A DNA stretch of 30,232 bases from Spartobacteria bacterium (GCA_043788785.1 JAYVTN010000170.1:1-30232), one strand, 5' to 3'; shown: positions 2,818 through 19,582, counted from the first letter of the stretch. The notes: a model not told the origin generated them from the letters alone. Program-made: numbers and translations.

Positions 2818-2820
2818 CGC

Positions 2821-3477: not shown

Positions 3478-3527
3478 ACCCTACCGACAATGCCCGGGGA
3501 ATCATGGAGCGCTGGCAACGCTGGAAT
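3478..3527 (-). promoter_or_regulatory. Putative late promoter, copy 1 (terS)
   Basis: ATTCCAGCG TTGCCAGCG CTCCATGA N18 TAGGGT, then 9 nt to ATG; same spacing as the copies at 8347-8396 and 19533-19582. Confidence 0.65.
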
Positions 3528-3548
3528 CTCCCGGCCCGCCCGGCCCTC

Positions 3549-4172
3549 TCAGGGCAGGAAACGCACCGCGATACCGCGTTGCTGCATCCGCTTGAGCACG
3601 GCGCACACACCCAGCTGCGCATCCACGGCATTGGCGGAAAACCGGCCATCGGCCACAAACTTACCAGAGCGATAAATCGAAGTGCCGCTCCAAAGATAGG
3701 GCGAGACCAACCCCCGCGACTGATACCCAAGCCCGTTATAGCTTTCTGCCGCTTGCAGGGCAGGTGCCAGCTGGCTCCAATTCCGCAGGTGCAGCCGCTC
3801 GTACCCATACAGGGCATCCTCAGCCGATTGCCGCCAAGTATAGGGCGGCTCCACATTCGGGATCCGGCCTTTTGGAACCAGCCGGGTCCGCTGGTTCAGT
3901 GGCGACCCTTCATGCAGGTGGCACCGGAACGAGTTGTCCGACTCCCGCATATGGAGCGCGAAGATTACAGGCGCTGGCACGCCATTAGCCTGGCTCTTCT
4001 CCACAGACTCGTAGATTCCAGCGGTCCGCTGGTAGCGGGCCACCGCTTGCTCGAGCCGGATGAAGTCGCGGGGATTAAGCGTGGCTTGGTTCCAGCGCGC
4101 AGCGTGGTCAGGCTCAGCAGATGCAAATCCGCATGACAGGCAAAAGAGCGCAATCGAAAGCAGTACATTCAT
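3549..4172 (-). CDS. Endolysin, lysozyme-like family, with N-terminal signal peptide
   Basis: IFALHMRES catalytic-Glu region, ESYNGLGY, SPYLWSGT, GKFVADG motifs; hydrophobic N-terminus ending ASA-E. Confidence 0.8.
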   Translation of the reverse strand: MNVLLSIALFCLSCGFASAEPDHAARWNQATLNPRDFIRLEQAVARYQRTAGIYESVEKSQANGVPAPVIFALHMRESDNSFRCHLHEGSPLNQRTRLVPKGRIPNVEPPYTWRQSAEDALYGYERLHLRNWSQLAPALQAAESYNGLGYQSRGLVSPYLWSGTSIYRSGKFVADGRFSANAVDAQLGVCAVLKRMQQRGIAVRFLP

Positions 4173-4180
4173 GAATCCTT

Positions 4181-4369
4181 TCAGTGGCTTCGTGTCCGGA
4201 TCTGTGCGGCCGCTTCAACCAAAGCAACTAGCTCATTGCGACGGGCCGCCTCTTTAGCCGCCGCTAACGCGGCAAGCCTCGGCTCATGGAGCGCGCGGAT
4301 AATGTCCCCGCCGAATATCAGTGCCGCCACAACCAGCGCGATCACAGACGTTAGGAGGGAATCACCCAT
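4181..4369 (-). CDS. Small single-TM protein of the lysis cassette
   Basis: 62 aa, N-terminal hydrophobic helix, tight spacing in the operon. Confidence 0.55.
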   Translation of the reverse strand: MGDSLLTSVIALVVAALIFGGDIIRALHEPRLAALAAAKEAARRNELVALVEAAAQIRTRSH

Positions 4370-4375
4370 AACACC

Positions 4376-4708
4376 TCAGCGGCTTACCGAAGCCGCGATG
4401 ATGCAGATCCCGAGGAAAATCACACCCTTGGTCACCACAGTCAGGATCAACCGGGTCCGCGCATCCAGCGCCTGCCATTCGCGGTCGTACAGGCCCGAGT
4501 GGCTATCGGCATCGATCGTGTCCCGGTAATGCAAATGAACAATCAGCCGGCTCAGCACCGCAGCCAGGCTGGCCACCGCGAATATGAACAGCAGCGGGCC
4601 GAACAGATCAAACGCCCGATGATTGAGCGTCAGCAGCACGGACACAATGGCCAGCAAAATTAGATGCCAGGAGCGCCCGAGGAACGTGATGAACGGAATG
4701 TTCGGCAT
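4376..4708 (-). CDS. Putative holin (about 3 TM segments)
   Basis: 110 aa with three hydrophobic stretches, next to the endolysin. Confidence 0.55.
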   Translation of the reverse strand: MPNIPFITFLGRSWHLILLAIVSVLLTLNHRAFDLFGPLLFIFAVASLAAVLSRLIVHLHYRDTIDADSHSGLYDREWQALDARTRLILTVVTKGVIFLGICIIAASVSR

Positions 4709-4714
4709 AGTGGT

Positions 4715-5314
4715 TCAGATGAATTTGAGGAACGGCAAATACTGGCGGGCCACAAAAAACCCGGCCACGAGCAACACCAGCCCGAGGCAATATCCCCGCC
4801 AGCGCCATTTCAGCCCGGCCTCCACAGATGTGCGGGTCCGTTGCGTCGCCAGATCCTTGGTAAGCGTCTCCACCCGGTCCAGCGCTAGATTCTTTTCCGA
4901 GATGGTGGCCACCACCAGATCCGTTTGCCGGTCGATCTCGCCTTGCAGCGTGCCCGCCAGCGCATCGCTCTTGGCCAGCGCGGCTGACACCTCATCGACC
5001 TTGGTCGCCGCCCCGCTCAGCTCCGCCTGGGCCCCGGCCAGCTGGCCTTGCAGCTCAGTCACCACAGGCCGGGCTTCCACTGGCGACACGCGCAGCAGCG
5101 CGGCGGCGTTGGCTTGCGCAGCGCCAATATGCGTCCGGGCAGCCTGGACATGGCCCCGGCTTTCCACCAGCGCCCCCCTTGCAGCCAATGTCGCTGCACG
5201 GATCCCGATCGTGCTCGGCGGCGTATGGACGATCTGGCGGGCCGCCCGGTGCGCGCACCCGGCGACCATTGCCACCATGGCGCAGAGCATCAGCGAGCGC
5301 AGCGCGGGCTTCAC
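4715..5314 (-). CDS. Lipoprotein with C-terminal TM helix; candidate unimolecular spanin
   Basis: Lipobox VAG-C at residue 20, Ala/Leu-rich helical middle, C-terminal YCLGLVLLVAGFFVA; in the lysis cassette. Confidence 0.6.
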   Translation of the reverse strand: MKPALRSLMLCAMVAMVAGCAHRAARQIVHTPPSTIGIRAATLAARGALVESRGHVQAARTHIGAAQANAAALLRVSPVEARPVVTELQGQLAGAQAELSGAATKVDEVSAALAKSDALAGTLQGEIDRQTDLVVATISEKNLALDRVETLTKDLATQRTRTSVEAGLKWRWRGYCLGLVLLVAGFFVARQYLPFLKFI

Positions 5315-5580
5315 GCGACGCCCTCGCGTTCGGCAGCCAACACCCCTTCGCTGGTTGCCTGGTAATGCGGCGTCGCCCCGTCCCCGTCCGGCGTCATCGC
5401 CACATGCTTGCGCCCCACCAAAAATACCAGCGCATCATTGATTTGCTCCTGGCTGAAATCGTTGCCCTCGGCGTTGACCCGGCGCCGGATCGTCTCATTG
5501 GTGAATGCCAGGCGTTGCCGGTTGGCGAGCCATCCCCGCACTTCCTTCCGGCATTCTTCGCGGCGTTGTTGGTCGCTCAT
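5311..5580 (-). CDS. Mu gp26-like small winged-helix protein
   Basis: Probable start MSDQQRREECR at 5580; INDALVFLVGRKHV...YQATSEGVLAAE; typical of genes upstream of Mu-like TerS. Confidence 0.55.
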   Translation of the reverse strand: MSDQQRREECRKEVRGWLANRQRLAFTNETIRRRVNAEGNDFSQEQINDALVFLVGRKHVAMTPDGDGATPHYQATSEGVLAAEREGVA

Positions 5581-5945
5581 AGATATTCTTTCCCCCGCGA
5601 TTTGGATTCCAGTTTCCCGATCTCTCGACACACATCGTTGGAAAACGACTGGAGGGTTCGTTGCTGCGCATCCAGTTTGTCAAAAATGGCCGCGATGTCC
5701 TTGCTCTGCCTCTCTTCCATGGCGGCGAGCTCCCCCTTGGTCGCGTACACCGTGTGCATGGGGGGCTTGGACCGCAGCCGGTCCCAGATCGTCACCGCCG
5801 AAGAGAGCGCTCCTAGCAGGCTAACCCCGATCGCGCACAATAACCCCACCACGAGCATCTGCACATTGCCCGGCGTAGCATTGGCATCCGCCAGGGTGCT
5901 GATGTAGCCGACGAGCGGCAGGAATTGGATCAGGAGCAGTGTCAT
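5577..5945 (-). CDS. Membrane-anchored coiled-coil protein (Mu gp25 / DUF2730-like)
   Basis: Real gene is the C-terminal part of track ORF 5577..6401; TM segment followed by YATKGELAAMEERQ coiled coil; start at 5945 or 5954. Confidence 0.55.
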   Translation of the reverse strand: MTLLLIQFLPLVGYISTLADANATPGNVQMLVVGLLCAIGVSLLGALSSAVTIWDRLRSKPPMHTVYATKGELAAMEERQSKDIAAIFDKLDAQQRTLQSFSNDVCREIGKLESKSRGKEYL

Positions 5946-5953
5946 AGGCCCCA

Positions 5954-6004
5954 TCCATAAGCTGGCCCGCGCGTCCAGTCGCGGAGCCGTGGCGACCGTG
6001 GAAA
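5954..6004 (-). promoter_or_regulatory. Putative late promoter, copy 2 (lysis cassette), weak -10
   Basis: TTTCCACGG TCGCCACGG CTCCGCGA then N18-19 and TTATGGA; located in the gap ahead of the lysis genes. Confidence 0.45.
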
Positions 6005-6121
6005 CCTCGCCCGGTAAAAAGAGCTCCGTACTCTCCGCCTTATACCAGCGCCGCCGCCTGCCTGAACTTCTCCGCGATTTGGGCGGGAGAAAGCCCAGCG
6101 CCGCGCCGATACGCTTGTCGC

Positions 6122-6607
6122 TCAGGGCACCAACCCAAGGATTTGTTCGCGTCGCTCGCCGGTGATCACCCCGAGCTGCACGAGCGCGGACATCGCGGCT
6201 AGTAGGTCGGTGTCGTCGCTGCGGACCTCGGTGGTCGTGGTGAGCTTGAGCCGCATCAAGTCCACCTGCACGTTCGCGCGGGCGGACTTGATGAATGCCA
6301 GCAGTTCGGGGTCGGTGAACAGGCGGCGGAACACGCCGATGGTCCACGTCTTCACGGGCGCTGGCGGCTTGGGCCGCACGACCCAGCCCGCATCCGTCCA
6401 CATCATCCGGGCGTCGAGGATGGCTTTGATCGTGGTCACCGCCCCATTGAGCAACATCGGCAGTTGCTTGCTGGTGCGGAGAGTTGCGACCTCAGCCGCT
6501 TGCTCGTCGGTTAGTTCAGCGGTCGTGCAGTCTGGTGGATGCGAAGTGACGGGATGATCCAAGACCGTCATAATCTCTCCGCGCGGGCCGATCAGGGCGT
6601 AGTTCAT
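6122..6607 (-). CDS. Tail-fibre-associated or assembly protein
   Basis: C-terminal FRRLFTDPEL...VRSDD...LVQLGVITGERREQIL motif, seen in phage genes that follow fibre genes. Confidence 0.55.
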   Translation of the reverse strand: MNYALIGPRGEIMTVLDHPVTSHPPDCTTAELTDEQAAEVATLRTSKQLPMLLNGAVTTIKAILDARMMWTDAGWVVRPKPPAPVKTWTIGVFRRLFTDPELLAFIKSARANVQVDLMRLKLTTTTEVRSDDTDLLAAMSALVQLGVITGERREQILGLVP

Positions 6608-6616
6608 AGTGGAAAA

Positions 6617-7639
6617 TTAAAGGTCTGCGATAACAGTGAGCCCGCCGTAGGTGGAGCCGTAGCCCGTGGCTGCGGTGGGAACGTGGATTTCGGTGGCCGC
6701 GATGGCGGTAAAGGCGCCTCCCAATGTTGGCGCGGCAAGCGCGAGGCAACTCAGGTAGGTGAGGCCGTAGCAGTAGGCGAGTGCGGAATAGCCGATGCTT
6801 GTAAGTCCAGAGGGCAGGGTCAGGCTGGTGAGGCCGTCGCAGTAGAAGAGTGCGTAATCGCCAATGGTCGTGAGGCCATCGGGTAGCGTCAGGCTGGTGA
6901 GGCCGTCGCAGCCGTAAAGTGCGTAATCGCCAATGGTCGTGAGGCCAGAAGGGAGTGTCAGACTCGTGAGGCCGGTGCAGAGGGCGAGTGCGGAAACGCC
7001 GATGGACGTGAGGCCAGCGGGCAGGGTCAGGCTTGTGAGGCTGGTGCACTCGGTGAGTGCGTTATCAGCAAGTGCGGTCATGGCGACCAATGGCGACAAG
7101 TCCAAAGCCGTCAGCGACCAACGCCCGGTGAAGATCGTGACATTGACGCAGCCCGTGAAATCGAACACGACGCTGTCGGTGCCTTCTACGTGGAGGCTTG
7201 TCGCTTCCGCCGGATTCCCCAGATACACGTCACTTCCAACCAGATGAAAGGCCGTGCTTCCGCCCGTTACCGTCCACCCGGAGATGTCCATGACGTTCCA
7301 CGCAAAGAGTAAGGATACGACCGACTTCGTCAGCACGCCGCTGTTGAGGAAATACGTGCCATCTTGCGGGTCGGTGGTAGGGAGAGCGCCAAGCAGGTTG
7401 TCAAGCGCCGAGGGAACGTTCGTGAGGTCGGAGAGGTTACTGGCCTTCGCGAGTCTGTCCGCGCTGCTCGCGTCGCTTCCGTCGGTGCCGTTGGTCCCGT
7501 TGGCTCCCGGCAAGCCCGCCACGACCACCGCGCCCGCCGAGCTGATCACGCGCAGCGTGTCGGTATCGTCAATATACAGCCCCGCTTTTCCGGCCGGTGG
7601 CGCAACTGGGGCGTCTGCGAGTTTGGGTAGTTGGATCAT
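6617..7639 (-). CDS. Putative receptor-binding or fibre protein with BspA-type (LRR_5) repeats
   Basis: Short collagen-like GXY run (GLPGANGTNGTDG), then five 23-aa repeats CxxLTSLTLPxGLTxIGxxALxx. Confidence 0.75.
   Translation of the reverse strand: MIQLPKLADAPVAPPAGKAGLYIDDTDTLRVISSAGAVVVAGLPGANGTNGTDGSDASSADRLAKASNLSDLTNVPSALDNLLGALPTTDPQDGTYFLNSGVLTKSVVSLLFAWNVMDISGWTVTGGSTAFHLVGSDVYLGNPAEATSLHVEGTDSVVFDFTGCVNVTIFTGRWSLTALDLSPLVAMTALADNALTECTSLTSLTLPAGLTSIGVSALALCTGLTSLTLPSGLTTIGDYALYGCDGLTSLTLPDGLTTIGDYALFYCDGLTSLTLPSGLTSIGYSALAYCYGLTYLSCLALAAPTLGGAFTAIAATEIHVPTAATGYGSTYGGLTVIADL
6752..7066 (-). repeat. 69-bp coding tandem repeats (LRR units)
   Basis: Units start at 7066, 6997, 6928, 6859 and 6790. 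Confidence 0.9.
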
Positions 7640-7656
7640 AAAAAAAGAGGATGCGG

Positions 7657-8340
7657 TCAGAGAACTACGAGGCGGCCGGTGCCGGCGAATGTCAGGGTGC
7701 CTGCCACGTCGAATCCGCGCAGCACGATCAGATCCCGGCCATCGGGGATCACCAGTGTTTGCCCGGCTGGCACGCCCTGGGGGCTGCCGATCTGGGCCAG
7801 CGTTAGCACATCGCCGGGCGGCGGATATGGCGGGTCGCCTGCGACCGGCGCACCTTCGCCCCCGGTCACTCCCGAGCGGATCGTAGCGGGGAATTGAAAA
7901 CTGAGCCGCGACGTGTTGGCCGCGTTGCGGATCTGGACGGTCACCACGACTGCCAGGCGTCCGTCCGTTGTCGCCGTTACCGCCGCGATCAGCGGCACGG
8001 TGTTGAGGTCCAGCGCCGCTTCGTACCGGTAGCCGTCCTCGGCATCCGCCCCCTCGTGGATCTCCGTAAAGTCCACGGCCGAAAAAAGGAACCCGTCCGC
8101 ATCGGGATCATTGGCCGCCCGGCCCCCGACCAGGATCGTATCGCCCGCCTCAATGGCGATAGCCGTTAGCGATGTCAGTTCCGTGGACCCGCGTTTGAGG
8201 ATCCGCACGCGCAGCGTGAAATCGTCCCGCAAGATCCAGACCACCGCCGCCGCTGTGCTCGTCGATGTCGCGCCTGCCAGCAACGGGGCAGCCGGCCCCC
8301 GCGACGAGTCTAGGAATACATCAAAATACCGGCTGAACAT
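7657..8340 (-). CDS. Putative tail-fibre or baseplate attachment protein
   Basis: First gene of a late operon, beta-rich, immediately upstream of the LRR gene. Confidence 0.45.
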   Translation of the reverse strand: MFSRYFDVFLDSSRGPAAPLLAGATSTSTAAAVVWILRDDFTLRVRILKRGSTELTSLTAIAIEAGDTILVGGRAANDPDADGFLFSAVDFTEIHEGADAEDGYRYEAALDLNTVPLIAAVTATTDGRLAVVVTVQIRNAANTSRLSFQFPATIRSGVTGGEGAPVAGDPPYPPPGDVLTLAQIGSPQGVPAGQTLVIPDGRDLIVLRGFDVAGTLTFAGTGRLVVL

Positions 8341-8346
8341 CCCGAC

Positions 8347-8396
8347 ACCCTACCACCCATTGCCCCAAGGTCATGTCGCGGTGGCGATGCTGGAAA
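8347..8396 (-). promoter_or_regulatory. Putative late promoter, copy 3 (fibre operon)
   Basis: TTTCCAGCA TCGCCACCG CGACATGA N18 TAGGGT, then 6 nt to ATG 8340. Confidence 0.65.
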
Positions 8397-8432
8397 CTGC
8401 CCCGGGGGGCGGATGAAGAAGAGTCGGCGCTC

Positions 8433-9080
8433 TTAGCGATACAGGTCTTCGTACTTATCCGTCACGAAGCCATTTCCTGTGATTTCGCCGTCCGATGATT
8501 TTGCTTTCCACGAGAAAGAGGCCACCGACCAATCTCCGTGTATCTTCTGTGGGCCGGCGTTCGCGTCAATATGGCAGACGGCTCCGCCTTTTGCTGGAAT
8601 CGTTGTCGTGAATGTCTCGGACCCATTCCGAACGCCATTCTGTGTGTTCAATAGGGTAACCGTTACCTCTCCGACCCAGTCTTTGCTGGCCGGGTTGCGA
8701 AATGAGAAAAAGTACCGGAATTTTTGCGATTTTCCCAGGAACCCATCTTCGGCGATCCGCTTAACCATAAGGCTTACAGCCGTCAGGTTTTGGGGCTTGG
8801 CTGCCTCTGCCTCCGCTGCTGATGTCTTTTCCAGCTTGGGCCGTATTTGTTCGGCTAGTGCTACAGGCCAGCTTGCTCGCGCGAAAAAGCGGGGATCCGA
8901 TTTTTTCTTTTCTTCAAAACCGGCAATGAAAGCCTTGTTCCACTTGGAGTCTTTGACCCCGATATCAGGGTAACGCCTCACGGCCTCGGCCCGCCACTGA
9001 TCGGCTGTTTGAGCGCGCGCCGGTGCTGCGGCTCCCGCAATCAGCAAAATTGCCAGCCATATAAGGTGAAGGGGTTTCAT
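8433..9080 (-). CDS. Secreted hypothetical protein (moron-like)
   Basis: Signal peptide MKPLHLIWLAILLIAGAAAPARA-Q; AVRRYPDIGV...WPVALAEQ segment resembling a domain I recall from Chthoniobacterales proteins. Confidence 0.7.
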   Translation of the reverse strand: MKPLHLIWLAILLIAGAAAPARAQTADQWRAEAVRRYPDIGVKDSKWNKAFIAGFEEKKKSDPRFFARASWPVALAEQIRPKLEKTSAAEAEAAKPQNLTAVSLMVKRIAEDGFLGKSQKFRYFFSFRNPASKDWVGEVTVTLLNTQNGVRNGSETFTTTIPAKGGAVCHIDANAGPQKIHGDWSVASFSWKAKSSDGEITGNGFVTDKYEDLYR

Positions 9081-9121
9081 CTATTTGGGCTTTTTGTCAG
9101 GTTCGTGGGGCAACCCCCGGC

Positions 9122-9586
9122 TCAAGGCTGGGCGCCTTCAATAAGCAGGTAGACCGGTGTCCTCCAGTCTTCCGGGAGTTTCACCTTCGCGAACTGCAAG
9201 TACCTGTCCAAGTCAATGGGCCTGAAGTTTTTAGTTTCCGTCTTGGTTTCACCATTTGGAATGGTCGCAAGTGCCCAATGGTCCCCGAATGATCCGACCT
9301 CCATGCCGTATGCGTTGAAAATGCGGAATGTGTAATCAGGTTTCCGGGGCAGCTCGTTCGTGTTGAGGTAGGTAATGACCGCACTGGTTTTGCCGACCGT
9401 AATCCTTTTGATAAGGCCCCCATTCACCAGAATCTCCGGATCTGAAAGCGGGTACGCATGCAGGTGTAACTCGGGATTTGTTAGGACGACTTTCGGTAAA
9501 GTCGGCGCTTTCTCTTGAGCGCCCGGGGTCTGGCTGAAGGCGCAAACCGGCATCAGTAGGGCAAGGATTAGAATCAAAGGTTTCAT
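9122..9586 (-). CDS. Secreted hypothetical protein (moron-like)
   Basis: Real start MKPLILILALLMPVCAFS-Q at 9586; signal peptide. Confidence 0.7.
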   Translation of the reverse strand: MKPLILILALLMPVCAFSQTPGAQEKAPTLPKVVLTNPELHLHAYPLSDPEILVNGGLIKRITVGKTSAVITYLNTNELPRKPDYTFRIFNAYGMEVGSFGDHWALATIPNGETKTETKNFRPIDLDRYLQFAKVKLPEDWRTPVYLLIEGAQP

Positions 9587-9678
9587 GTTTTGGGTGGATT
9601 GGGGTTTCGGGGCTGTTGTTTTGCTTCTCGGCGCTCTGCCCGCTCGTAGATGTACCGACATTCCGCCAAGCGAACCCC
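9583..9678 (-). pseudogene. 3' remnant of an unidentified gene (possibly the repressor)
   Basis: GVRLAECRYIYERAERREAKQQPRNPNPPKT*; its TGA overlaps the ATG at 9586 (ATGA), which suggests a genuine gene end with no matching 5' part. Confidence 0.35.
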
Positions 9679-9679
9679 C

Positions 9680-9925
9680 CTCTTCAAAGCTAAGGAAGTA
9701 ATCGCGCGGATCGCGGTGGCCGAGACGGCAAGCGGTCCAGATCTTGTTTTCGCGCTCCATCTCGCCGCGTTTCCGCCCGATCTGGCCCCGGATGGTCTGG
9801 CAAGCGCGCTGGAAGAAATTGAAACGGTTCTCGATGATCTTGGTGGTGGGCGACTGGCTCTCAATGACGCGGAGCCCAAGGCCCTGCATGCCGCCGAGAC
9901 GCAGCATTTCATCGGTATTGGCGTT
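9680..9925 (-). pseudogene. Internal fragment of a MuA-like DDE transposase
   Basis: GGMQGLGLRVIESQSPTTKIIENRFNFFQ...GQIGRKRGEMERE...DPRDYFLSFEE resembles the K-x-IE-x-x-F region around the catalytic Glu; strong GC3 coding bias in this frame. Confidence 0.65.
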
Positions 9926-9941
9926 TGCTAATTTGGGTCAA
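9926..9941 (+). promoter_or_regulatory. Extended -10 promoter of the early operon
   Basis: TGcTAATTT with 7 nt to ATG 9942. Confidence 0.45.
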
Positions 9942-10139
9942 ATGTTACCGCGAAACAATATGGCGCAGGAACTGAAACGGAAAGGATGGAGTTATCGGCG
10001 GGCGGCCCAAGCCCTCGGCGTCAGTGTTGGACATCTATTCCTCGTTACCACCGGCGCCCGCAAAAGCAAACGGCTTACCGACCGCGTTTTCGCCCTCCCC
10101 GAAGCGCCTCGCCACACTCGCCGCACTCCCAAAAAATGA
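9942..10139 (+). CDS. Ner/Cro-like HTH regulator
   Basis: ELKRKGWSYRRAAQALGVSVGHL HTH; first gene of the rightward arm; start at 9942 or 9960. Confidence 0.75.
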   Translation: MLPRNNMAQELKRKGWSYRRAAQALGVSVGHLFLVTTGARKSKRLTDRVFALPEAPRHTRRTPKK

Positions 10140-10561: not shown

Positions 10562-10575
10562 TTTCCAATCCAAAT

Positions 10576-11303: not shown

Positions 11304-11304
11304 C

Positions 11305-12484: not shown

Positions 12485-12693
12485 CTGACATCCTGCACTG
12501 GCTAACCGCAAACCCCGGCGCCCTGTTCAGCGGCGTGCTCCTTTCTGGCATGGTCATGATGGCGCTCAGTTTCGGCCTCGGCTACGACGCGGGCCACGGC
12601 ATCGGCTATTGGCAGGGCCGCGACAAGCAAGAGGACATCGACCACGACGGGCAATCCCCCGCCATCGGCGGCGACCTGGAGGATCGTCCATGA
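12478..12693 (+). CDS. Small membrane protein
   Basis: MLADILHWL...TM segment...GYDAGHGIGYWQG. Confidence 0.6.
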   Translation: MLADILHWLTANPGALFSGVLLSGMVMMALSFGLGYDAGHGIGYWQGRDKQEDIDHDGQSPAIGGDLEDRP

Positions 12694-12977
12694 AGATCAT
12701 CCTAAAGATTGGTCGTATGACAGAGATCCTGCTCCCTGATGACAAAGGCGTTGCCACGGTCTTGAAAGTTCTGAGCCGTGGAATCGAGTGCAATGATCGT
12801 CTCTACCGGAAAGTGATCGTGGTCACTGACCAAGTGCCTGTGGAGATCAAGACTGTGCCCCGCGATGTAACCATCAAGCGGAGCGATGATCTCTACACGC
12901 CTAACTCTGAACTGGACGCCGATGCCCGTGGCCGCAAGCCGCTGGCCCTGCCCGAGCCCAAAAGCATCATCCTCTAA
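12690..12977 (+). CDS. Hypothetical protein
   Basis: MKIILKIGRM start with ATGA overlap. Confidence 0.6.
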   Translation: MKIILKIGRMTEILLPDDKGVATVLKVLSRGIECNDRLYRKVIVVTDQVPVEIKTVPRDVTIKRSDDLYTPNSELDADARGRKPLALPEPKSIIL

Positions 12978-12983
12978 ATCGCC

Positions 12984-13220
12984 ATGCCAAACTCAACCGA
13001 TCCACGAGACAAAGAGTACCTGAAGGAGATGGCCAGGGTCGTTGACTCCAAGTTACCCGATAACCATGGGTTCATCCTTCTGGCGTTCCCCTTCGGCGAG
13101 AGCCCGGACAACCGTTTGATCTACACGGCCAGCTGTCAGCGTGCGGACGCAATCAAAATGCTCAAGGAGTTCCTCTTTGCGCTCGGTGAATCGGAAGCCT
13201 GGATGAATCACATCCGCTAA
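12984..13220 (+). CDS. Hypothetical phage protein
   Basis: 78 aa, tight operon spacing. Confidence 0.6.
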   Translation: MPNSTDPRDKEYLKEMARVVDSKLPDNHGFILLAFPFGESPDNRLIYTASCQRADAIKMLKEFLFALGESEAWMNHIR

Positions 13221-13246
13221 CCCAAGAACCCGCCAGAACCCCCAGA

Positions 13247-13753
13247 ATGCGCCACTTCCACCTGCAACCCGCTCCCGACCGGATGACCACGCGCCCGGCG
13301 TCAAAGCCCCGGCCTGCAACGCCCGGCGCGCTCACTGGCCCGCTTTCGAATGAGCAGAAGGCCAGCGTCTGCATCCTGGCACGCGACGCGTACGCCTTGC
13401 AGTTTGTAGACCAGGAATACAGCGAGTGGCGCCGGGACCAGCAGCTGGCCGCCGTGGGCAAAGCCAGCCTATTGGATTGCACCCAGGACGATTTCCTTCG
13501 GCTGCGGAGCTGGTTCCAGAGGTTGGCAGGGGAAGAAGGCGACTCGATCCGGACCGGCACCCATCACACGACCGAGCCGCTGCGCGTGGCCATGCACAAG
13601 CTCTGTGAGCAGGTCCGCGAGCGCGGCCTTTCCATCGCTTACGCCGAGAGCATCTGCCAGCGCCAGTACAAGTGCCCATTGGAGAAGGCCAACGTCAAAC
13701 AGGTCTGGTGCCTAGTCTACACAATCCGCAACCGCAGAAAGCCAACCAAATAA
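13247..13753 (+). CDS. GemA/gp16-like regulatory protein
   Basis: LSNEQK...WRRDQQLAAVGKASL...Q.DF..LRSWF; position matches the Mu semi-essential region. Confidence 0.45.
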   Translation: MRHFHLQPAPDRMTTRPASKPRPATPGALTGPLSNEQKASVCILARDAYALQFVDQEYSEWRRDQQLAAVGKASLLDCTQDDFLRLRSWFQRLAGEEGDSIRTGTHHTTEPLRVAMHKLCEQVRERGLSIAYAESICQRQYKCPLEKANVKQVWCLVYTIRNRRKPTK

Positions 13754-13754
13754 T

Positions 13755-14093
13755 ATGCGCCCCATCGACATCCGAAACGAAAACTGGGAATCCATCCAAG
13801 ACCTTCTTACCGAGCAACGCGGCGAAGTCCTGGCTGCATGGCGAAACCTCGGCCCGGGCACAACCCGCGAAGTCGCGATCCGGTCCGGGATCGATCTGCT
13901 GAGCTTCCGGCCGCGCACAACCGAGCTACTGCAACTGTGCATGATCCAGTTGGCCGCCCGAAATGGTTTGGAAGGCGTTTACCAAGCCATCCCGGCGAGC
14001 TCTGCCCGCGCTTACTTCGAGACAACCCGCTTCGCAATCCTCAGCGAAGAGCAGCGCCGCCAAGAGCTAGCCTCCGCGCAATTTCCCACCTGA
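13755..14093 (+). CDS. Winged-helix DNA-binding protein
   Basis: GPGTTREVAIRSGIDLLSFRPRTTELLQL. Confidence 0.6.
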   Translation: MRPIDIRNENWESIQDLLTEQRGEVLAAWRNLGPGTTREVAIRSGIDLLSFRPRTTELLQLCMIQLAARNGLEGVYQAIPASSARAYFETTRFAILSEEQRRQELASAQFPT

Positions 14094-14097
14094 CTTT

Positions 14098-14241
14098 ATG
14101 ACAACCACCCTAATCCAAATCGCAGAAGCCACCGCCGCTACCAACGCCGCAAACGTCGATAGCATTTGCGCCGCAATCATAGGCTCTGTCGCGTTGATCG
14201 TCATCGGCGTTGTCGTGGTCTGCTTATCGAAAAATTCATAG
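14098..14241 (+). CDS. 47-aa single-TM protein (below track cutoff)
   Basis: MTTTLIQIAEATAATNAANVDSICAAIIGSVALIVIGVVVVCLSKNS*. Confidence 0.55.
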   Translation: MTTTLIQIAEATAATNAANVDSICAAIIGSVALIVIGVVVVCLSKNS

Positions 14242-14251
14242 CCCCGCACTT

Positions 14252-14288
14252 AGGTCCTTTTAGTCCCTTACGTCCCTTAGGTCCCTTT
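14252..14288 (+). repeat. Four 9-bp GTCCYTTNN tandem units
   Basis: ggtcctttt agtccctta cgtccctta ggtcccttt, upstream of dnaB. Confidence 0.8.
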
Positions 14289-14311
14289 CACACAACGCCC
14301 CACCCCCCAGA

Positions 14312-15763
14312 ATGCTCGAGCAACTCACACTGGAATCCGCCACCGCCCCGCGCAAGGCCCGCAAAGCGCGTGCCGAGTATCTGCCGGACATCCACCGTCT
14401 CCTGCCCCAGTCGGCGGATGCCGAGCGCGGCGTTCTCTCTGCGTTCCTTCTGGACCCGCGCGAAGTGGGCGGGATCTGCGCCGAAGCCAAGCTTGCGGCC
14501 GACAACTTCCACCTCGGCGCGCACAAGACCATCTACAGCGTTCTCATGGAGCTCTGGGACGCCACCAAGCCCATCGACTTCATCACGCTTACCCAGATCC
14601 TCAGTGATCGCGGCTCGCTCGAAGCCGTGGGAGGCGCGGCTTATATCACCGAACTCTTCACCTTCCTGCCTACCGCGGCCAATGCCGCCTATTATATTGG
14701 CATCGTAGAAGAGAAAGCCACCTTGCGCGGCATGATCCGGGTATGCGCCGAGTTCGGCGGCCGCTCCTACGACGAACAGGAAGACGTGCCTGCCCTACTC
14801 AGCGACGCCGAAGCCGCCATTCTCGGCATTGCCCAGGATCGGATCCGGGGCAAAGCCGCTGACATGAAACAAAGCGTGCTCGGCGCGCTTACCGCCATCT
14901 CCACCCTCCACGAGCGCCGGGGCGAGATCTCCGGGCTTTCCACCGGATTCGCGGACCTGGACAAAATGACCGATGGCCTGCACGGCTCGGAAATGATCGT
15001 CATCGCCGCGCGCCCGTCCATGGGCAAGACCGCGCTTGCCATGAACATGGCCGAACACATCGCTGTGGATCTGGGCAAAGCCGTGGCCGTGTTCAGCCTG
15101 GAGATGAGCACACAGCAGCTGGTGCAACGCCTGCTCTGTTCCCGGGCCCGGGTTAACATGGCCCGGGTCCGCGATGGGTTCCTGAACGAACGCGATTTCC
15201 CAAACCTGCAAATCGCCGCGTCAAAGCTGGCATCTGCAAAGATGTTCATCGACGACACCTCCGCCCTGAGCATTTTGGAATTGCGGGCCAAAGCGCGTCG
15301 GCTCAAGCAGCAGCACAACATCGCGGCGATCTTCATCGACTATATCCAGCTGTTGCGGTCCACATCCCGGCGGGGCCAGGACAACCGCCAGATTGAGATT
15401 GCCGAGATCAGCAACGGCCTCAAAGCGCTGGCCAAAGAATTGGATTTGCCGGTCGTGGTCCTCGCACAGCTCAACCGCAACCCGGAGAACCGCGGACCGA
15501 GCGGTTCTGGGGGGGGAGCAGGCCGGCCGCGTCTTAGCGATCTGCGCGAATCGGGTAGCATCGAGCAGGACGCGGACGTTGTTGGCCTATTGTTGCGGGA
15601 TGAGTATTATGCCGATAGCGACACGGAAAAGGAGGCGCTCAAGGGCATGGCCACGTTGATCATCGCCAAATCGCGCAACGGGCCCGTGGGTGATCTGCCT
15701 TTAACATTCCTCAAAGAATTTACCCGGTTCGAAACCCGGGCGTCTGAACCCTCAGAAGCCTAA
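14312..15763 (+). CDS. dnaB: Replicative DNA helicase
   Basis: PQSADAERGVL N-domain, AARPSMGKT Walker A, FSLEM, IDYIQL, LAQLNR, LSDLRESGSIEQDAD, IAKSRNGP. Confidence 0.97.
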   Translation: MLEQLTLESATAPRKARKARAEYLPDIHRLLPQSADAERGVLSAFLLDPREVGGICAEAKLAADNFHLGAHKTIYSVLMELWDATKPIDFITLTQILSDRGSLEAVGGAAYITELFTFLPTAANAAYYIGIVEEKATLRGMIRVCAEFGGRSYDEQEDVPALLSDAEAAILGIAQDRIRGKAADMKQSVLGALTAISTLHERRGEISGLSTGFADLDKMTDGLHGSEMIVIAARPSMGKTALAMNMAEHIAVDLGKAVAVFSLEMSTQQLVQRLLCSRARVNMARVRDGFLNERDFPNLQIAASKLASAKMFIDDTSALSILELRAKARRLKQQHNIAAIFIDYIQLLRSTSRRGQDNRQIEIAEISNGLKALAKELDLPVVVLAQLNRNPENRGPSGSGGGAGRPRLSDLRESGSIEQDADVVGLLLRDEYYADSDTEKEALKGMATLIIAKSRNGPVGDLPLTFLKEFTRFETRASEPSEA

Positions 15764-15803
15764 GCCCCCAGAACGAACCCCCCCAGAATCCAGAACTCTC
15801 CAA

Positions 15804-16235
15804 ATGGCCAAACCACCCACCCCAACGCAAGCGCCCCAGATGGTCACCATCTACCCGGCTGGCCTCAAGCTCCGGGTCAGCCCGGAGGAACCTCTGGCCC
15901 CGTGGCCCGCGCATGTCCCGATCCCCAACAGCATTGGCGTTTTCGAGTGGATCGCGGATCCTGCCAACCCGACCGCTTTCAAGCCCATGATCCGGGTCCA
16001 ATCGAGCATGGTCCGGATGCGGATGGGGATCACCGAAGAGCTGGGGCTCGGGCTGAGCTACAACAGCCTGCGCCGACTGATGCTGGCAGGGTTCGTGCGC
16101 AGCATCCAAGTAACCCCCGGCCAGAACGCCTTTTGTTTGCAGAGCTATTACAAGCACGTCGCCGCCGTCGCCGCCGATGCCGAGTTTTGGACCGGCCACA
16201 ACCTCAAGCGCTACATGGAGACCTTGGCACCATGA
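15804..16235 (+). CDS. Hypothetical protein with possible Xis/MerR-like wHTH; candidate late activator
   Basis: LGLGLSYNSLRRLMLAGFVRSIQVTP. Confidence 0.5.
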   Translation: MAKPPTPTQAPQMVTIYPAGLKLRVSPEEPLAPWPAHVPIPNSIGVFEWIADPANPTAFKPMIRVQSSMVRMRMGITEELGLGLSYNSLRRLMLAGFVRSIQVTPGQNAFCLQSYYKHVAAVAADAEFWTGHNLKRYMETLAP

Positions 16236-16498
16236 GCGAGGGAGCACGGATGATCCTTTCCCCTAAGCAGAGGGCTGTGATCCAGTTCGTTCGGGAATCA
16301 GGCTCCATAACTGTCGCGCAAGCTGTGAAACTGATTGGCGGGAACATCTACACCAATGAAGCGTTCCATTGCGGCAACGTGCTTCGGAATATGGCCAAGC
16401 GCGGATTGCTCGAACGATCAGCCCGGGGCGTCTATATCCATTTACAAGCGCCAGACCACGGATTGTTGGATGGGATGAACCCGAGGGCTCAGCGATGA
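16232..16498 (+). CDS. Small winged-helix protein
   Basis: LSPKQRAVIQFVRESGSITVAQAVKL...LRNMAKRGLLERSARGVY. Confidence 0.6.
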   Translation: MSEGARMILSPKQRAVIQFVRESGSITVAQAVKLIGGNIYTNEAFHCGNVLRNMAKRGLLERSARGVYIHLQAPDHGLLDGMNPRAQR

Positions 16499-17034
16499 GA
16501 AACGCCACATCAAAACCTCCGCGCCGATTTGTTCGGATGTTCAAGCCCCAGTTTGTTCCTTTAATTCAATCGGGCAGCAAGCGGACCACGCTTCGACCGA
16601 TCCCAAAGCGGAGGCCAGAAGCCGGGGATGTCATCGATATCCGGGAATGGGCATCGCTGCCTTATCGATCCAAACAACTCAAGATCCGCACCGCTCCGAT
16701 TGTGATTGTGCGCGATGCGGTGATTTGGGATGACGGCCTAGTTTTGGATGGTCTCATGCTCGGTTCCGAGGCCATGCTTGATGCTATCGCGAAAGCAGAC
16801 GGCTTCGATGGTTGGGAGCAAATGTACGATTGGTTCAAGCGTAGCTACAGCCTGCCCTTTCATGGAATCCTGATCTGCTGGGATCCTGATCGGGCGTGCC
16901 AATGGAGGCAGGTTCCCGATGGTGAAGAGTGCGGACAGATGGCAACGCATTGCCATTCAGAATCCACTTTGCGCTACTGCGACCGACATGCAGCGGCCTT
17001 TAGCGGCACGATCAAATTAGAACTCCTGGCATAA
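16495..17034 (+). CDS. ASCH/PUA-like domain protein with C-terminal Cys/His extension
   Basis: MFKPQFVPLIQSGSKRTTLRP...GD...AKADGFD; C-terminal C..C..HC..YC. Confidence 0.7.
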   Translation: MRNATSKPPRRFVRMFKPQFVPLIQSGSKRTTLRPIPKRRPEAGDVIDIREWASLPYRSKQLKIRTAPIVIVRDAVIWDDGLVLDGLMLGSEAMLDAIAKADGFDGWEQMYDWFKRSYSLPFHGILICWDPDRACQWRQVPDGEECGQMATHCHSESTLRYCDRHAAAFSGTIKLELLA

Positions 17035-17037
17035 TCA

Positions 17038-18579
17038 ATGAGTGAGTTTCTTTTCGGCCCAACGCCCCACCAAGAGGCGATCGACTTCCTCCAGAGCAAG
17101 CCGATCGTCAGCAAGGAAGTTTTCGACAAGCTTTTGCCTGAGCTCAAAGCCCGGGCCTTTGTCATTTCCGGAGTCGAAGATGCCAACGTGGTTGGCGCGA
17201 TCCGGCGCCGTCTCTCGGATCTCCCGGCCGGCGTGCCGTGGGATAAAATAAAGAAAGACATCGCCGATGACCTGCATCCCTTCCTGGCCAACCCGGAAGA
17301 TCCCGAAAGCCGGATCGCTGCCGAGCGCCGCGCCGAGTTGCTGCTGCGCACCCACGGCTTCCAGGCGTACCAGGCGGCCGCGTACGAAGTCGGTGAGCGT
17401 CAGGCTGACGTCTTCCCTTATCTCCAGTACAAGAGCATGGGCGACGGCAAGGTGCGCCCCGCCCATGCCTCCCTGGATAACATCGTTCTGCCCCGGGACC
17501 ACGAGTTTTGGAGCAGCCACACCCCGCCCTGGGATTGGGGCTGCCGATGCCAGGCTATCCCGATCTCCGAGGATGACCGGGCTGACCTGGTCGAAGCGGA
17601 CAAAGGCAAGCCGCTGGATAGTCAGAACGTCCTGGGCGAATACGCCCAGGCGGATCTCACCGCCACGCGCCGCCTGGTCCGCAACGGGGTGAGCCACAAC
17701 GTCTCCAGCCCGGCGGAGCTGGGCAAGCCCAACGCTTACCAGAGCCATGTCGGCGATCTGCGTTTGTCCCTGGACGAACTCAAAGGCCGGTACGATGCCC
17801 AGACATGGGCCGAGTTCCAAACATGGGCCCAGGGCCAAGCCATCCAAGAAGGTGTCAGCGTCTGGGACTGGTTGCAGGGCAAAGCCCTGGCAAGCTCGGG
17901 GACAAACCCTCAGCCAACTCCTCCCACAGCTCAGCAGTCGGCCAAACCCGCAAAAAAAGGGAAAGCGCCAAAGAAAGGCAAACCGGTTGCCATACCGTTG
18001 CGCCAGTCCCCTGTGAGCAACGCCTTGGATGTGATCATCAAAGGTCCGCAGAAAAAGCAGGTGATTAACGCGATCAATCAAATCGACATTGCCCACGACG
18101 ACGGCACCCTTCCCAAGATCCGCGTCGATGGCAAAACCGGGAAAAATGCTCTTGGCGAGTTTGATCCCACCAACCATAGGATCGGGATCCGGGCAAGTGG
18201 TACATGGCCAGGCCTGACGATGTGCCACGAGGCCGGGCACGCCCTGGACCGCCACGCGATGGGGGTCGTTGGAAAGTGGGCCTCAGCGTCCGCGCCGGAG
18301 TTTGCCGAGTGGCGGGCCGCCATGGATGTGAGCCATGCGATCGCGACAATCTCCAGCTTCCCGCCAAGCCCAACCCGCAACTATTTCCTGTCCAAGCATG
18401 AGCAGTGGGCCCGATCCTACGCCCAGTATATCGCCGTAAAGACACAGGATCCCCAGTTGCTCGCTGATCTGGACCGGGTCCGCACCTCGGGCGCCGGATG
18501 GCGTCAATGGGCCGACGATGACTTTAAGCCTATCGCCGAGGCCATAGATAAGGTATTCAAGGGGTACAACTGGATATGA
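17038..18579 (+). CDS. MuF (gp30-like) minor head protein with C-terminal zincin metallopeptidase-like domain
   Basis: EAIDFLQSK, YLQYKSMGDGKVRPAH, PPWDWGCRC (MuF); low-complexity linker; HEAGHALD and EQWARSYAQY. Confidence 0.85.
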   Translation: MSEFLFGPTPHQEAIDFLQSKPIVSKEVFDKLLPELKARAFVISGVEDANVVGAIRRRLSDLPAGVPWDKIKKDIADDLHPFLANPEDPESRIAAERRAELLLRTHGFQAYQAAAYEVGERQADVFPYLQYKSMGDGKVRPAHASLDNIVLPRDHEFWSSHTPPWDWGCRCQAIPISEDDRADLVEADKGKPLDSQNVLGEYAQADLTATRRLVRNGVSHNVSSPAELGKPNAYQSHVGDLRLSLDELKGRYDAQTWAEFQTWAQGQAIQEGVSVWDWLQGKALASSGTNPQPTPPTAQQSAKPAKKGKAPKKGKPVAIPLRQSPVSNALDVIIKGPQKKQVINAINQIDIAHDDGTLPKIRVDGKTGKNALGEFDPTNHRIGIRASGTWPGLTMCHEAGHALDRHAMGVVGKWASASAPEFAEWRAAMDVSHAIATISSFPPSPTRNYFLSKHEQWARSYAQYIAVKTQDPQLLADLDRVRTSGAGWRQWADDDFKPIAEAIDKVFKGYNWI

Positions 18580-18761
18580 ACGAAGATCCAAAGATAACCG
18601 ACATTCTGACCCGCCTCGGCCGGGAAGAGATTTCCGCCGAGGATGCCAAGAAGCAGCTCGTGGCCGCTGGCCTGCATCCCGCCGATGCCGATGACCTCGT
18701 TTTCATCGGTCAAGGCGGCTCGGATGTGATCGGGCCTTTGCCGGGGTCCGATGCTCTTTAG
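18576..18761 (+). CDS. Small acidic protein; candidate immunity partner of the MuF extension
   Basis: 61 aa, ATGA overlap with MuF. Confidence 0.5.
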   Translation: MNEDPKITDILTRLGREEISAEDAKKQLVAAGLHPADADDLVFIGQGGSDVIGPLPGSDAL

Positions 18762-18796
18762 TCCCTTCCGTCCCTTCCGTCCTTTAGGTCCCTTCC
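18761..18796 (+). repeat. Four 9-bp GTCCYTTNN tandem units
   Basis: gtcccttcc gtcccttcc gtcctttag gtcccttcc, ending 1 nt before ATG 18798. Confidence 0.8.
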
Positions 18797-18797
18797 A

Positions 18798-19238
18798 ATG
18801 AGTTTGCAGATCCGAGACGGCATCAGTCCGGAGCTGGCTCGCAAAGCAGCCGCGCTTCGAGATCGCAAACCGATCTTGGAAGCCATGGGGCTTCAACTCG
18901 TTAGCATTACCAAGCGGGCTTTCTCGGATCCCGGTCTCCGTCCTGCGCCATGGGCCGCGCGCAAAAAGCCAGCCTCGCACAGCCTTCTGCGACTCAGCGG
19001 GGCCATGTGGCAATCCATCCGGATCAGCGATCTCAACAACTGCCAGGTCACCGTGGGCAGCGACCGCATATACGCCGCGCTTCAGCAACTGGGCAGCGGC
19101 AAGGGCAGCGGACGCGGCTCAGGCGTTCCAGCCAGGCCTTTCTTCCCATTCACCAAGAGCGGCGTCATGACCGCGACCGCAGAAGACAAGATCCGCAAAG
19201 TGGCGCTGGCGAAACTCGCCAACCTGCTGCGCACATAA
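18798..19238 (+). CDS. Virion morphogenesis protein (Mu gpG / Phage_tail_S-like)
   Basis: WAARK...LLRLSGAMWQSI...VGSDRIYAALQQLG...VPARPFFP. Confidence 0.85.
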   Translation: MSLQIRDGISPELARKAAALRDRKPILEAMGLQLVSITKRAFSDPGLRPAPWAARKKPASHSLLRLSGAMWQSIRISDLNNCQVTVGSDRIYAALQQLGSGKGSGRGSGVPARPFFPFTKSGVMTATAEDKIRKVALAKLANLLRT

Positions 19239-19525
19239 AGCCCCCGATTCTCGGCGTTTCAGCTTTTAGCTTTCGGCTTTTAGCTTTCTCTTCAGCAGCA
19301 GCTGGGCAGCGGCAAGGGCAGCGGACGCGGCTCAGGCGTGCCAGCCAGGCCTTTCTTCCCATTCAGCAAGAGCGGCATCATGACCGCCACCGCAGAAGAC
19401 AAAATCCGCAAAGTGGCGCTGGCGAAACTCGCCAACCTGCTGCGCGCATAAAGCCCCCGATTCTCGGCGTTTCAGCTTTTAGCTTTCGGCTTTTAGCTTT
19501 CTCTTCGGCTTTTAGCTTTCTCTTC
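19082..19525 (+). repeat. 213-bp imperfect tandem duplication of the gpG 3' end plus downstream AGCTTT(T/C) repeats
   Basis: 19091 aligns to 19304; 7 substitutions in the coding part, non-coding part identical. Confidence 0.92.
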
Positions 19526-19532
19526 AAAAGGG

Positions 19533-19582
19533 TTGCCAGCGTTTCCAGCGCTCATAGGCGATCCCTAAAAGCGTGGCAGGCT
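19533..19582 (+). promoter_or_regulatory. Putative late promoter, copy 4 (head operon)
   Basis: TTGCCAGCG TTTCCAGCG CTCATAGG N18 CAGGCT, then 7 nt to GTG 19590. Confidence 0.6.

Follow-up and report, generated by a model that had tools for sequence, protein, structure and literature searches.

Direct-repeat elements before the late operons of a Mu-like prophage from a Spartobacteria bacterium are probable activator-dependent late promoters

To our knowledge an understanding of late-gene control is confined to a few model phages, with almost nothing known for phages of Verrucomicrobia-like bacteria, and translation initiation has hardly been studied in the host phylum. A Mu-like prophage carried by a Spartobacteria bacterium (GCA_043788785.1, JAYVTN010000170.1:1-30232; the whole stretch of 30,232 nucleotides is referred to here as the window) raises the question of how such a phage turns on its late operons. 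The sequencing runs listed for this DNA are four sediment metagenome DNA runs from a single study. The original prediction for this locus described a late-promoter motif of tandem 9-mers plus a -10 hexamer in four copies on both arms, and all four were found where claimed, each in the orientation of the gene downstream.

3478..3527, minus strand: predicted late promoter element of the putative terS; ATTCCAGCG TTGCCAGCG, 4 nt, ATGATT, 16 nt, TAGGGT, 9 nt, ATG at 3468
5955..6004, minus strand: predicted late promoter element of the lysis cassette, ahead of its holin-like first gene; TTTCCACGG TCGCCACGG, 4 nt, GCGACT, 16 nt, TTATGG; ATGs in frame at 5954 and at 5945
8347..8396, minus strand: predicted late promoter element of the fibre operon; TTTCCAGCA TCGCCACCG, 4 nt, ATGACC, 16 nt, TAGGGT, 6 nt, ATG at 8340
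19533..19582, plus strand: predicted late promoter element and counterpart of Mu PI, before the Mu I-like protease gene; TTGCCAGCG TTTCCAGCG, 4 nt, TAGGCG, 16 nt, CAGGCT, 7 nt, GTG at 19590

Each element is about 50 nt long and consists of two 9-nt direct repeats (TTKCCASSG) with a hexamer 26 nt beyond them, on the strand of the downstream gene. The terS, fibre and protease copies do have the identical spacing described for them (9+9+8+18+hexamer in all three), and the lysis copy, for which N18-19 TTATGGA had been proposed, shares this spacing once its hexamer is read as TTATGG. A 21-nt matrix built from the four sites was run on the window and on the 3.2-Mb host metagenome-assembled genome (MAG). 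The four sites score 26.5-29.6 bits while the runners-up reach 19.2 bits in the MAG and 13.8 bits in the window, a gap which indicates that there is no fifth site in the window and no copy in the host, so the motif is particular to the phage contig rather than general to the host. In leave-one-out runs on both strands of the window a matrix of three sites recovers the fourth as its top non-training match. A motif scan of the whole element and its relatives had been suggested as one check on this motif, and it came out site-specific, not matched in the host MAG and kept in relatives. Among broader searches, neither Rfam nor tRNA scans had any match, and 25 kb submitted to megablast matched nothing in a phage collection. 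Exact or architecture-level DNA patterns matched IMG/VR and JGI metagenome contigs only by chance and inside coding regions, the JGI contigs with 12 matches, about the chance number and none with the rest of the architecture. An 18-mer copy with 2 mismatches on contig C496 was taken as chance because it lacks the downstream half.

The elements lie directly in front of the putative terS-terL-portal, holin-like/lysis, fibre and protease-capsid operons, so that every copy heads a late operon as was proposed, the class "late" being assigned from annotation and synteny. The first genes of these operons are as follows.

2821..3468, minus strand: putative terS, so called from its position only, at the head of the terS-terL-portal operon; N-terminus conserved from residue 1 in the related phage G088
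5577..5954, minus strand: opens the lysis cassette, which extends down to 3549; membrane protein, holin-like, two hydrophobic helices, with a homologue in G135
7657..8340, minus strand: first gene of the fibre operon, followed by 6617-7639 and then 6122-6607
19590..20383, plus strand: Mu I-like protease/scaffold gene in two frames (19590 to about 19930, and 19934-20383); opens the head operon

Within the fibre operon 6617-7639 encodes a repeat-bearing protein (69-nt tandem repeat); neither it nor 6122-6607 matches a named family, and "fibre" is the label of the original prediction.

Eight related prophages or contigs show the architecture again where orthologous operons begin, which brings the total to 18 sites in 9 phages, and the expectation that the motif would be conserved in related phages thus holds. 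In G086 the matrix made from the window alone finds sites of 23.9 and 20.1 bits exactly upstream of the protease and fibre orthologues, and in G088 a loose regular expression whose background rate is 0.78 per 100 kb has 3 matches in 55 kb, all at the protease, terS and fibre orthologues; more sites are present in L042, L023, L043, G135, G100 and L052. Taken by operon, the protease site has orthologous sites in 8 relatives (alignment A2), the fibre site in G086, G088 and G135 before homologues of 7657-8340, the lysis site before holin-like genes in G135 and, in degenerate form, G088, and the terS site before terS in G088. Two further contigs, L021 and L022, have no clear tandem-repeat site before the protease gene; both carry a member of the candidate activator family described below. 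Across relatives conservation is limited to the repeat cores and the box at -35. When seven protease-upstream regions are aligned the only invariant positions are TT..CA, a second CA at a distance of 9 nt and, in the -35 box, TAG, and the 30 nt upstream of the element are unconserved. The repeat sequence varies between phages with the architecture being kept.

The absence of a canonical -35, a feature of the motif as first described, has to be revised, as degenerate -35-like hexamers (ATGATT, ATGACC, GCGACT and TAGGCG) sit 16 nt upstream of the -10-like hexamer. Counting the sites of relatives, a degenerate -35 (nTGACn/TAGACn) is found 16-17 nt upstream of the -10, and the two repeats, with an invariant CA core, lie 4 nt upstream of it and span roughly -57 to -40. 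Matches to consensus amount to 3-4/6 for the -35-like and 2-4/6 for the -10-like hexamers, poor examples of the latter being CAGGCT and TTATGG in the window and CAAGGC in G088, and a consensus promoter and terminator scan found no promoter at the sites and terminator-like matches at the level of shuffled sequence. The distance to the start codon is constrained: at 18/18 sites it lies 38-45 nt past the second repeat and 6-13 nt past a weak TAnnnT-like -10, and in the window each downstream ORF has its first possible start codon 6-9 nt past the hexamer. A Shine-Dalgarno sequence is missing from most genes of the window, one reason for which we rejected TAGGGT as a Shine-Dalgarno itself; the hexamers of relatives at this place (TTTACT, TAACGT, TAGAGT and TATCAA) are not Shine-Dalgarno-like yet fit TAnnnT. 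As read from sequence, this constrained distance implies that the late mRNAs would be leaderless or nearly so.

Taken together, we consider it probable from this arrangement that the four elements serve the Mu-like prophage as late promoters and are read by host polymerase with its primary sigma factor and a phage-encoded activator. Two copies of a phage DNA-binding protein would sit head-to-tail on the repeats beside the -35, where they would recruit or stabilise the host RNA polymerase, and transcription would start at the start codon or up to about 6 nt before it, yielding leaderless or near-leaderless late mRNAs. The 9-bp spacing places neighbouring sites about 310 degrees apart on B-DNA, so such binding would need distortion of the DNA, as in BldC. 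The pair of 9-bp repeats, the weak -35 and -10 and a start codon at the predicted transcription start would make up a compact promoter grammar, recognisable from sequence, that marks late operon starts throughout the clade and may be usable for annotating such prophages; it also predicts that whole late operons are expressed as leaderless mRNAs.

Other roles for the repeats were weighed against activator-dependent initiation. They may be the operator of a repressor or architectural protein, for example Cox/Apl-like, which stops or times late operons whose promoters fire without an activator; repression from direct repeats is often seen with Xis/Cox/Apl-type proteins and D29 Gp36 (PMC3936717, PMC12266134), and a -35-like hexamer is present. 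The repeats however lie upstream and clear of the -35, the -10 and the start, which is the usual place of an activator, and with -35 and -10 this poor and no promoter seen by the consensus scan unaided activity should be low, making a repressor improbable. Direct recognition by an alternative sigma factor or a phage-modified polymerase, with the repeats or the TAGAC box serving as the -35 and no separate DNA-binding activator, would account for a conserved block that adjoins the -10 with its spacing fixed in 18 sites, and is in our estimation quite improbable: there is no sigma-like or RNA-polymerase-like match among 46 candidate ORFs searched against PHROGs and roughly 25 against Pfam, and since no host site fits the matrix no host regulon uses the element. 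Sigma-54 promoters have the form TGGCAC-N5-TTGC with the start 12 nt downstream and depend on an AAA+ enhancer-binding protein. The repeats of some relatives (TTGGCACCC) superficially resemble their -24 boxes, but the window repeats lack GG, the GG-N10-GC spacing is not present, the start codon is about 40 nt rather than 12 nt downstream, and the scans of window ORFs found no enhancer-binding protein.

Should the conserved block work in RNA, as a 5'-UTR operator, a processing site or an antitermination signal on transcripts begun further upstream, it would be carried by read-through transcripts of the left-arm operons, which are contiguous and co-directional with no strong terminators between operons. 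Against this, direct repeats form no hairpin, the conserved parts are DNA-like boxes at promoter spacing, the protease site is preceded by a non-coding repeat region and not by an operon end, and a -10-like hexamer 6-13 nt before a start codon that is itself 38-45 nt from the repeats is the pattern of a leaderless promoter; we hold a role in RNA to be very improbable. The sites might instead have no part in expression and mark module boundaries, as shared sequences or recombination scars that are linkers for mosaic exchange or for site-specific recombination. This is suggested by the fibre operon, whose arm in the window differs from that in G088/G086 with its site along each time, although a promoter carried by its operon accounts for this equally well. 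Every site points the way its gene is read and keeps a fixed distance to the start codon, differing repeat sequences within a kept architecture fit a co-evolving protein-DNA pair better than homology-driven exchange, and no recombinase gene was found in the window, so that scars are hardly credible.

How the proposed activator-dependent promoters relate to known systems is best seen against Mu, whose C and Mor proteins bind dyad-symmetric sites as dimers. Shared with Mu are a set of three or four late promoters, those of the window being predicted, of which one immediately precedes the protease gene I, a recognisable weak -10 with a poor -35 at the heads of late operons, and a regulator gene, here a candidate, at the end of the early/middle region; the order GemA, Mor, C and late promoters (one before gene I) is paralleled by the layout of the window. 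An upstream-bound factor is required in Mu and would be so here. The site itself is, as predicted, unlike the dyad, with direct 9-mers and an inverted partner in 0/18 sites, and the start codons of the window fall at the predicted transcription start, whereas leaders and ribosome-binding sites are annotated for the late genes of Mu. Lambda CII also acts at a short T-rich box repeated directly (TTGC-N6-TTGC; TTGC occurs in two window copies) with a poor -35, and activation by a phage protein would be common to both, but the CII repeats have a 10-bp period, straddle the -35 and serve lysogeny functions, unlike the 9-bp period, the position of both repeats upstream of the -35-like hexamer and the late operons served here. 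Leaderless mRNAs are known from lambda PRM-cI and from many actinobacterial and mycobacteriophage genes; the start codon 6-9 nt past the -10-like hexamer without a Shine-Dalgarno resembles these in geometry, as judged from sequence alone, the difference being that the arrangement stands at all late operons of a phage clade and is coupled to an upstream direct-repeat operator. The form of the target also recalls BldC, whose protomers each cover 9 bp of a direct repeat head-to-tail (PMC5859096), as the two direct repeats with an exact 9-nt period in 18 sites of 9 phages would allow. P2 Cox, which binds boxes of 9 nt, is an activator of PLL, the late promoter of P4 (PMC3936717), with six or more repeats against two per site here and, for Cox and Apl, a spacing of 10-11 bp against 9 bp. 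As Xis/BldC/Cox-type binding to direct repeats is already known, the term "undescribed system" was too strong, and what is new is most likely a variant of the activator-dependent late promoter that yields messages with almost no leader.

Which protein would bind the repeats was considered from the early genes that lie ahead of the head genes.

13247..13753, plus strand: GemA-like early gene, a positional marker for the Mu-type early/middle layout
13755..14093, plus strand: alternative candidate activator, 112 aa, HTH_24/MarR-like winged helix; directly after the GemA-like gene, the Mor position in Mu
15804..16235, plus strand: best candidate activator, 143 aa, of a conserved family (alignment A1); beta domain at the N-terminus, Xis/MerR/BldC-type winged helix at the C-terminus; no conserved early gene lies between it and the head genes

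No member of the Mor/C family (PF08765) was found among about 25 window ORFs searched against Pfam at E up to 0.01-1, the other ORFs being searched against PHROGs only and the left end of the contig being incomplete; hhalign of family A1 with Mu C and Mor gave probabilities of 0.1% and 0.3%, and BLASTP of 13755-14093 with Mor gave an E of 1.5. Among the regulator genes originally proposed, 15804-16235 and 13755-14093 are conserved in relatives that keep the motif, while 16232-16498 and the adjoining ASCH-like gene are absent there. The 88-aa winged-helix protein of 16232-16498, our first candidate, and the ASCH-like 16495-17034 were dropped since neither has a homologue in G088, G086 or G135, which keep the motif.

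Co-occurrence, position and modelled fold type make 15804-16235 the likeliest activator, a choice that we hold tentatively. Members of A1 are present in 9/9 motif-bearing phages, these relatives not being independent, and 15804-16235 occupies the place that C holds in Mu, with nothing or one small ORF between the A1 member and the MuF gene in L042, L043, G088 and L052. It has no Pfam family at threshold, and the A1 profile gave nothing meaningful against PDB sequences. In the AF2 model (pLDDT 89.7) residues 66-139 align best with the winged helices of Xis, BldC, MerR and P2 Cox at Z 5.3-3.5, where Z below 8 can reflect a common arrangement. The best of these, in a consistent ranking, is Pukovnik Xis (residues 66-124, Z 5.3, below the caution level of 8, rmsd 2.2 A over 54 residues), followed by BldC (Z 4.3) and P2 Cox (Z 3.5), with GIsul2 Xis and MerR N-domains also matched; Foldseek against the PDB gave a probability of 0.82 but an E of about 1, with no match at E <= 0.001. 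The likeness to the BldC/Xis/P2 Cox/186 Apl group is one of structure only (Z 3.5-5.3), and the candidate differs from it in an extra N-terminal beta domain of about 60 residues, for which there was no structural match, and in having no evident recombination role. As a conserved candidate for a new activator family it would extend the head-to-tail direct-repeat binding of BldC, Xis and Cox to late transcription. It is possible, if still more tentative, that in one clade of Mu-like prophages, those of PVC-type bacteria, Mor/C gave way to an undescribed family of phage late activators with this domain pair (about 105 sequence clusters), which would bind head-to-tail on two 9-bp repeats that abut a weak -35 and switch on all late operons as leaderless mRNAs. 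The winged-helix protein of 13755-14093, in the Mor position, is our second choice and an unlikely one.

A Mu-like prophage is carried on the window, which is the entire contig C170 of a MAG of 520 contigs (3.2 Mb, 78.7% complete) and whose sequence is listed for four DNA runs of one sediment study and for no RNA run. Its genes are arranged as follows.

3468 down to 1, minus strand: putative terS, terL and portal
5954 down to 3549, minus strand: lysis cassette, the first gene encoding a holin-like membrane protein
8340 down to 6122, minus strand: fibre operon
Minus-strand arm, ahead of the fibre operon: two genes without assigned function
13247-13753, plus strand: GemA-like gene
13755-14093, plus strand: small winged-helix gene
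14312-15763, plus strand: DnaB-type helicase
17038-18579, plus strand: MuF-type head protein
19590-20383, plus strand: Mu I-like protease
21044-21955, plus strand: Mu T-like capsid protein
Plus-strand arm: ParB-like gene and Gam-like gene
Plus-strand arm: adaptor and tail genes
29617-30031, right contig end: DUF1501 gene fragments

At least 14 members of the family of these DUF1501 fragments are present in the MAG, so the right contig end is host DNA flanking the prophage. Distant homologues of the MuF protein bear Verrucomicrobiota names, and these names together with the multicopy family suggest a PVC-type host.

The original prediction described four sites of a shared motif, and all four were confirmed exactly as described, each in the orientation of the gene downstream: putative terS (3478-3527, minus strand), the holin-like gene of the lysis cassette (5955-6004, minus), the fibre operon (8347-8396, minus) and the protease (19533-19582, plus). 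Each consists of two 9-nt direct repeats with the consensus TTKCCASSG, then 8 nt, 18 nt and a hexamer. Scored with a 21-nt matrix the sites reach 26.5-29.6 bits, compared with 19.2 for the runner-up in the whole MAG and 13.8 in the window, and when each was left out of the matrix in turn it was the top non-training match on both window strands. The four sites are far beyond chance, and from the gap in matrix score it follows that there is no fifth site and that the motif is unused by the host genome. Where a canonical -35 had been thought absent we found degenerate -35-like hexamers (ATGATT, ATGACC, GCGACT, TAGGCG) 16 nt upstream of the -10-like hexamer, so that "weak -35" is the better wording. 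Each downstream ORF has its first potential start codon 6-9 nt past the hexamer, and the lysis gene has two in-frame ATGs, at 5954 and 5945, 0 and 9 nt past it.

Pattern scans of IMG/VR and JGI metagenome contigs returned chance matches only. Syntenic prophages turned up in a capsid-protein search of 151 genomes of the same bacterial family; the four further genomes that carry one belong to three other genera and are G088 (~70% identity), G086 (~50%), G100 and G135. The G088 genome is near-complete, and its prophage lies on a contig of 2.25 Mb. In G086 a matrix built from the window sites alone picks out a 23.9-bit and a 20.1-bit site, which lie exactly in front of the protease and fibre orthologues. 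With a loose regular expression, for which the background in the MAG is 0.78 matches per 100 kb, the 55 kb of G088 gave three matches, one each immediately in front of the protease, terS and fibre orthologues, and a degenerate fourth site lies ahead of a holin-like gene. In G135 the protease, holin and fibre sites, three in number, have in common a more diverged form of the motif, and the element is also found ahead of the protease gene in G100 and in four metagenomic contigs of related phages (L042, L023, L043 and L052). The expected conservation in related phages was thus borne out, with the same layout at 18 sites in nine phages: two 9-nt direct repeats with a CA core at fixed phase, 4 nt, a -35-like hexamer (nTGACn, TAGACn or TTAGCG), 16-17 nt, a weak -10-like hexamer and then the start codon, which falls 38-45 nt past the second repeat. 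When seven protease-upstream regions were aligned the invariant columns were confined to TT..CA in the first repeat, CA in the second and TAG in the -35 box, and the 30 nt upstream of the element were unconserved, a pattern we interpret as a phylogenetic footprint left by a functional DNA element. Between phages the repeats differ in sequence, with CCA in G086 as in the window and GCA in G088, L042 and G135, which would be compatible with a co-evolving protein-DNA pair. The feature is real, specific and conserved.

Judged by its geometry each site is a putative promoter of the sigma-70 type whose hexamers are weak, with a putative protein-binding site that spans about -57 to -40 and would directly adjoin the -35. 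Activators usually bind in that position. Reading the hexamer as a ribosome-binding site was rejected, as most window genes lack one and the hexamers at the equivalent place in relatives (TTTACT, TAACGT, TAGAGT, TATCAA) are TAnnnT-like and not GGAGG. Promoters of the lambda CII and sigma-54 types were likewise set aside on account of a misfit in period, position or spacing. The promoter/operator reading is the one we consider likely. Since the start codon lies 6-13 nt past the -10 at the 18 sites, we predict late mRNAs that are leaderless or carry a leader of only a few nt. We regard the element as most likely a novel version of the phage late promoters that depend on an activator, here combined with leaderless starts.

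Pfam scans of roughly 25 window ORFs did not find a protein of the Mor/C family. Among the regions originally put forward for binding or reporter assays, two small DNA-binding candidates (15804-16235 and 13755-14093) are conserved in the motif-bearing relatives. Another of these regions, encoding an 88-aa winged helix at 16232-16498, proved to be absent from relatives, as is the neighbouring ASCH-like gene, and both are unlikely activators. The 143-aa product of 15804-16235 is the better candidate of the two that are kept, although we assign it as the activator only tentatively. Its family (alignment A1) comprises ~105 clusters at 50% identity and has a member in nine of nine motif-bearing phages; the gene is usually at the end of the early region, with nothing or one small ORF between it and MuF in L042, L043, G088 and L052. 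In the AlphaFold model, which is confident (pLDDT 89.7), a beta domain at the N-terminus precedes a C-terminal helix-turn-helix and a beta-hairpin wing, with a helix at residues 86-95 and the wing at 100-111. The best alignments of the C-terminal domain model, of modest score and consistent ranking, are to excisionase and MerR-type winged helices, including Pukovnik Xis (Z 5.3, rmsd 2.2 Å over 54 residues), GIsul2 Xis, BldC, MerR N-domains and P2 Cox, and four of five homologues match a winged-helix family of Pfam in the corresponding region, below threshold. Winged helices of the Xis/MerR type are a fold class known for head-to-tail binding of direct repeats. BldC places one protomer per 9 bp of direct repeat (PMC5859096), and P2 Cox, which recognises boxes of 9 nt, acts as an activator of the late promoter of P4 (PMC3936717).

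Identity of the 15804-16235 product to its orthologues is 53-59% in G086 and G088, where the repeats are similar, and 33% in G135 and G100, where they are divergent, whereas that of 13755-14093 stays at 46-52% across all four. This drop alongside repeat divergence would lend weak support to the activator assignment, weak given that these relatives are not independent of one another. The second candidate, an HTH_24/MarR-like winged helix encoded directly after the GemA-like gene as Mor is after GemA in Mu, may control a middle step instead.

The sites and the candidate activator together would be the functional counterpart of the Mu late regulon, with which they share a small number of late promoters, one of them ahead of the protease gene, and a small (here candidate) activator whose gene closes the early/middle region. 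The distinction originally drawn from the Mu C/Mor dyad sites holds in that the site here is a direct repeat and the candidate activators are without similarity to Mor or C (hhalign probability <1%). We do not count the system as a member of the Mu late-regulon family; its putative mechanism resembles direct-repeat binding of the BldC/Xis/Cox type. Nothing established is overturned by the sites, and they make the control of late genes accessible to simple tests in phages of a phylum that has been little studied.

The virion genes lie on two divergent arms, one with lysis, terS, terL and portal and the opposite with early genes, MuF, head and tail, a layout conserved in G088 and G135 (window 1-19238 compared with G088:C2 and G135:C38). 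The fibre operon is on the other arm in G088 and G086 than in the window, and the promoter element has moved along with it. MuA/MuB-type transposase genes were not found in the early arm of the window (9986-17034), where there is a DnaB-type helicase instead, and the phage may have another replication mode or be a remnant; in the relatives L021-L023, L041 and L053 a large gene of 600-690 aa precedes an AAA_22 gene, a pair of the MuA/MuB kind. The large terminase (1205-2817) is split into two ORFs with a 4-nt overlap (2817..1909 and 1912..1205), and both parts match separately, in the same order, in G088 and G135. The protease lies in two frames (N-terminal 19590-~19930, C-terminal 19934-20383), and the switch, near a 12-nt tandem repeat at 19903-19926, is either a frameshift or a sequencing error.

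Other repeats were also observed. Three to four tandem 9-nt units GTCCYTTNN occur at 14249-14287, just upstream of the DnaB gene, and at 18756-18796, just upstream of the ATG at 18798. Such arrays are present on >80 MAG contigs, often as two facing arrays and at contig ends, and related phage contigs from other hosts have different 9-nt arrays in similar places (for example ATCCGTGNN in L021 and NNGACAGGA in L052); they look like a genome-wide class of host intergenic repeats shared by the prophages. Immediately upstream of the protease promoter element is a 213-bp tandem duplication (19083-19508, two copies, 96% identical), which could be real or an assembly artefact, followed by 19-nt repeats of TTCGGCTTTTAGCTTTCTC at 19485-19525. 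In L052 the palindrome TCATCGCCGGACGGGGCGATGA precedes both MuF and the protease promoter (3350-3760, 6780-6860) and may be a terminator or a second operator.
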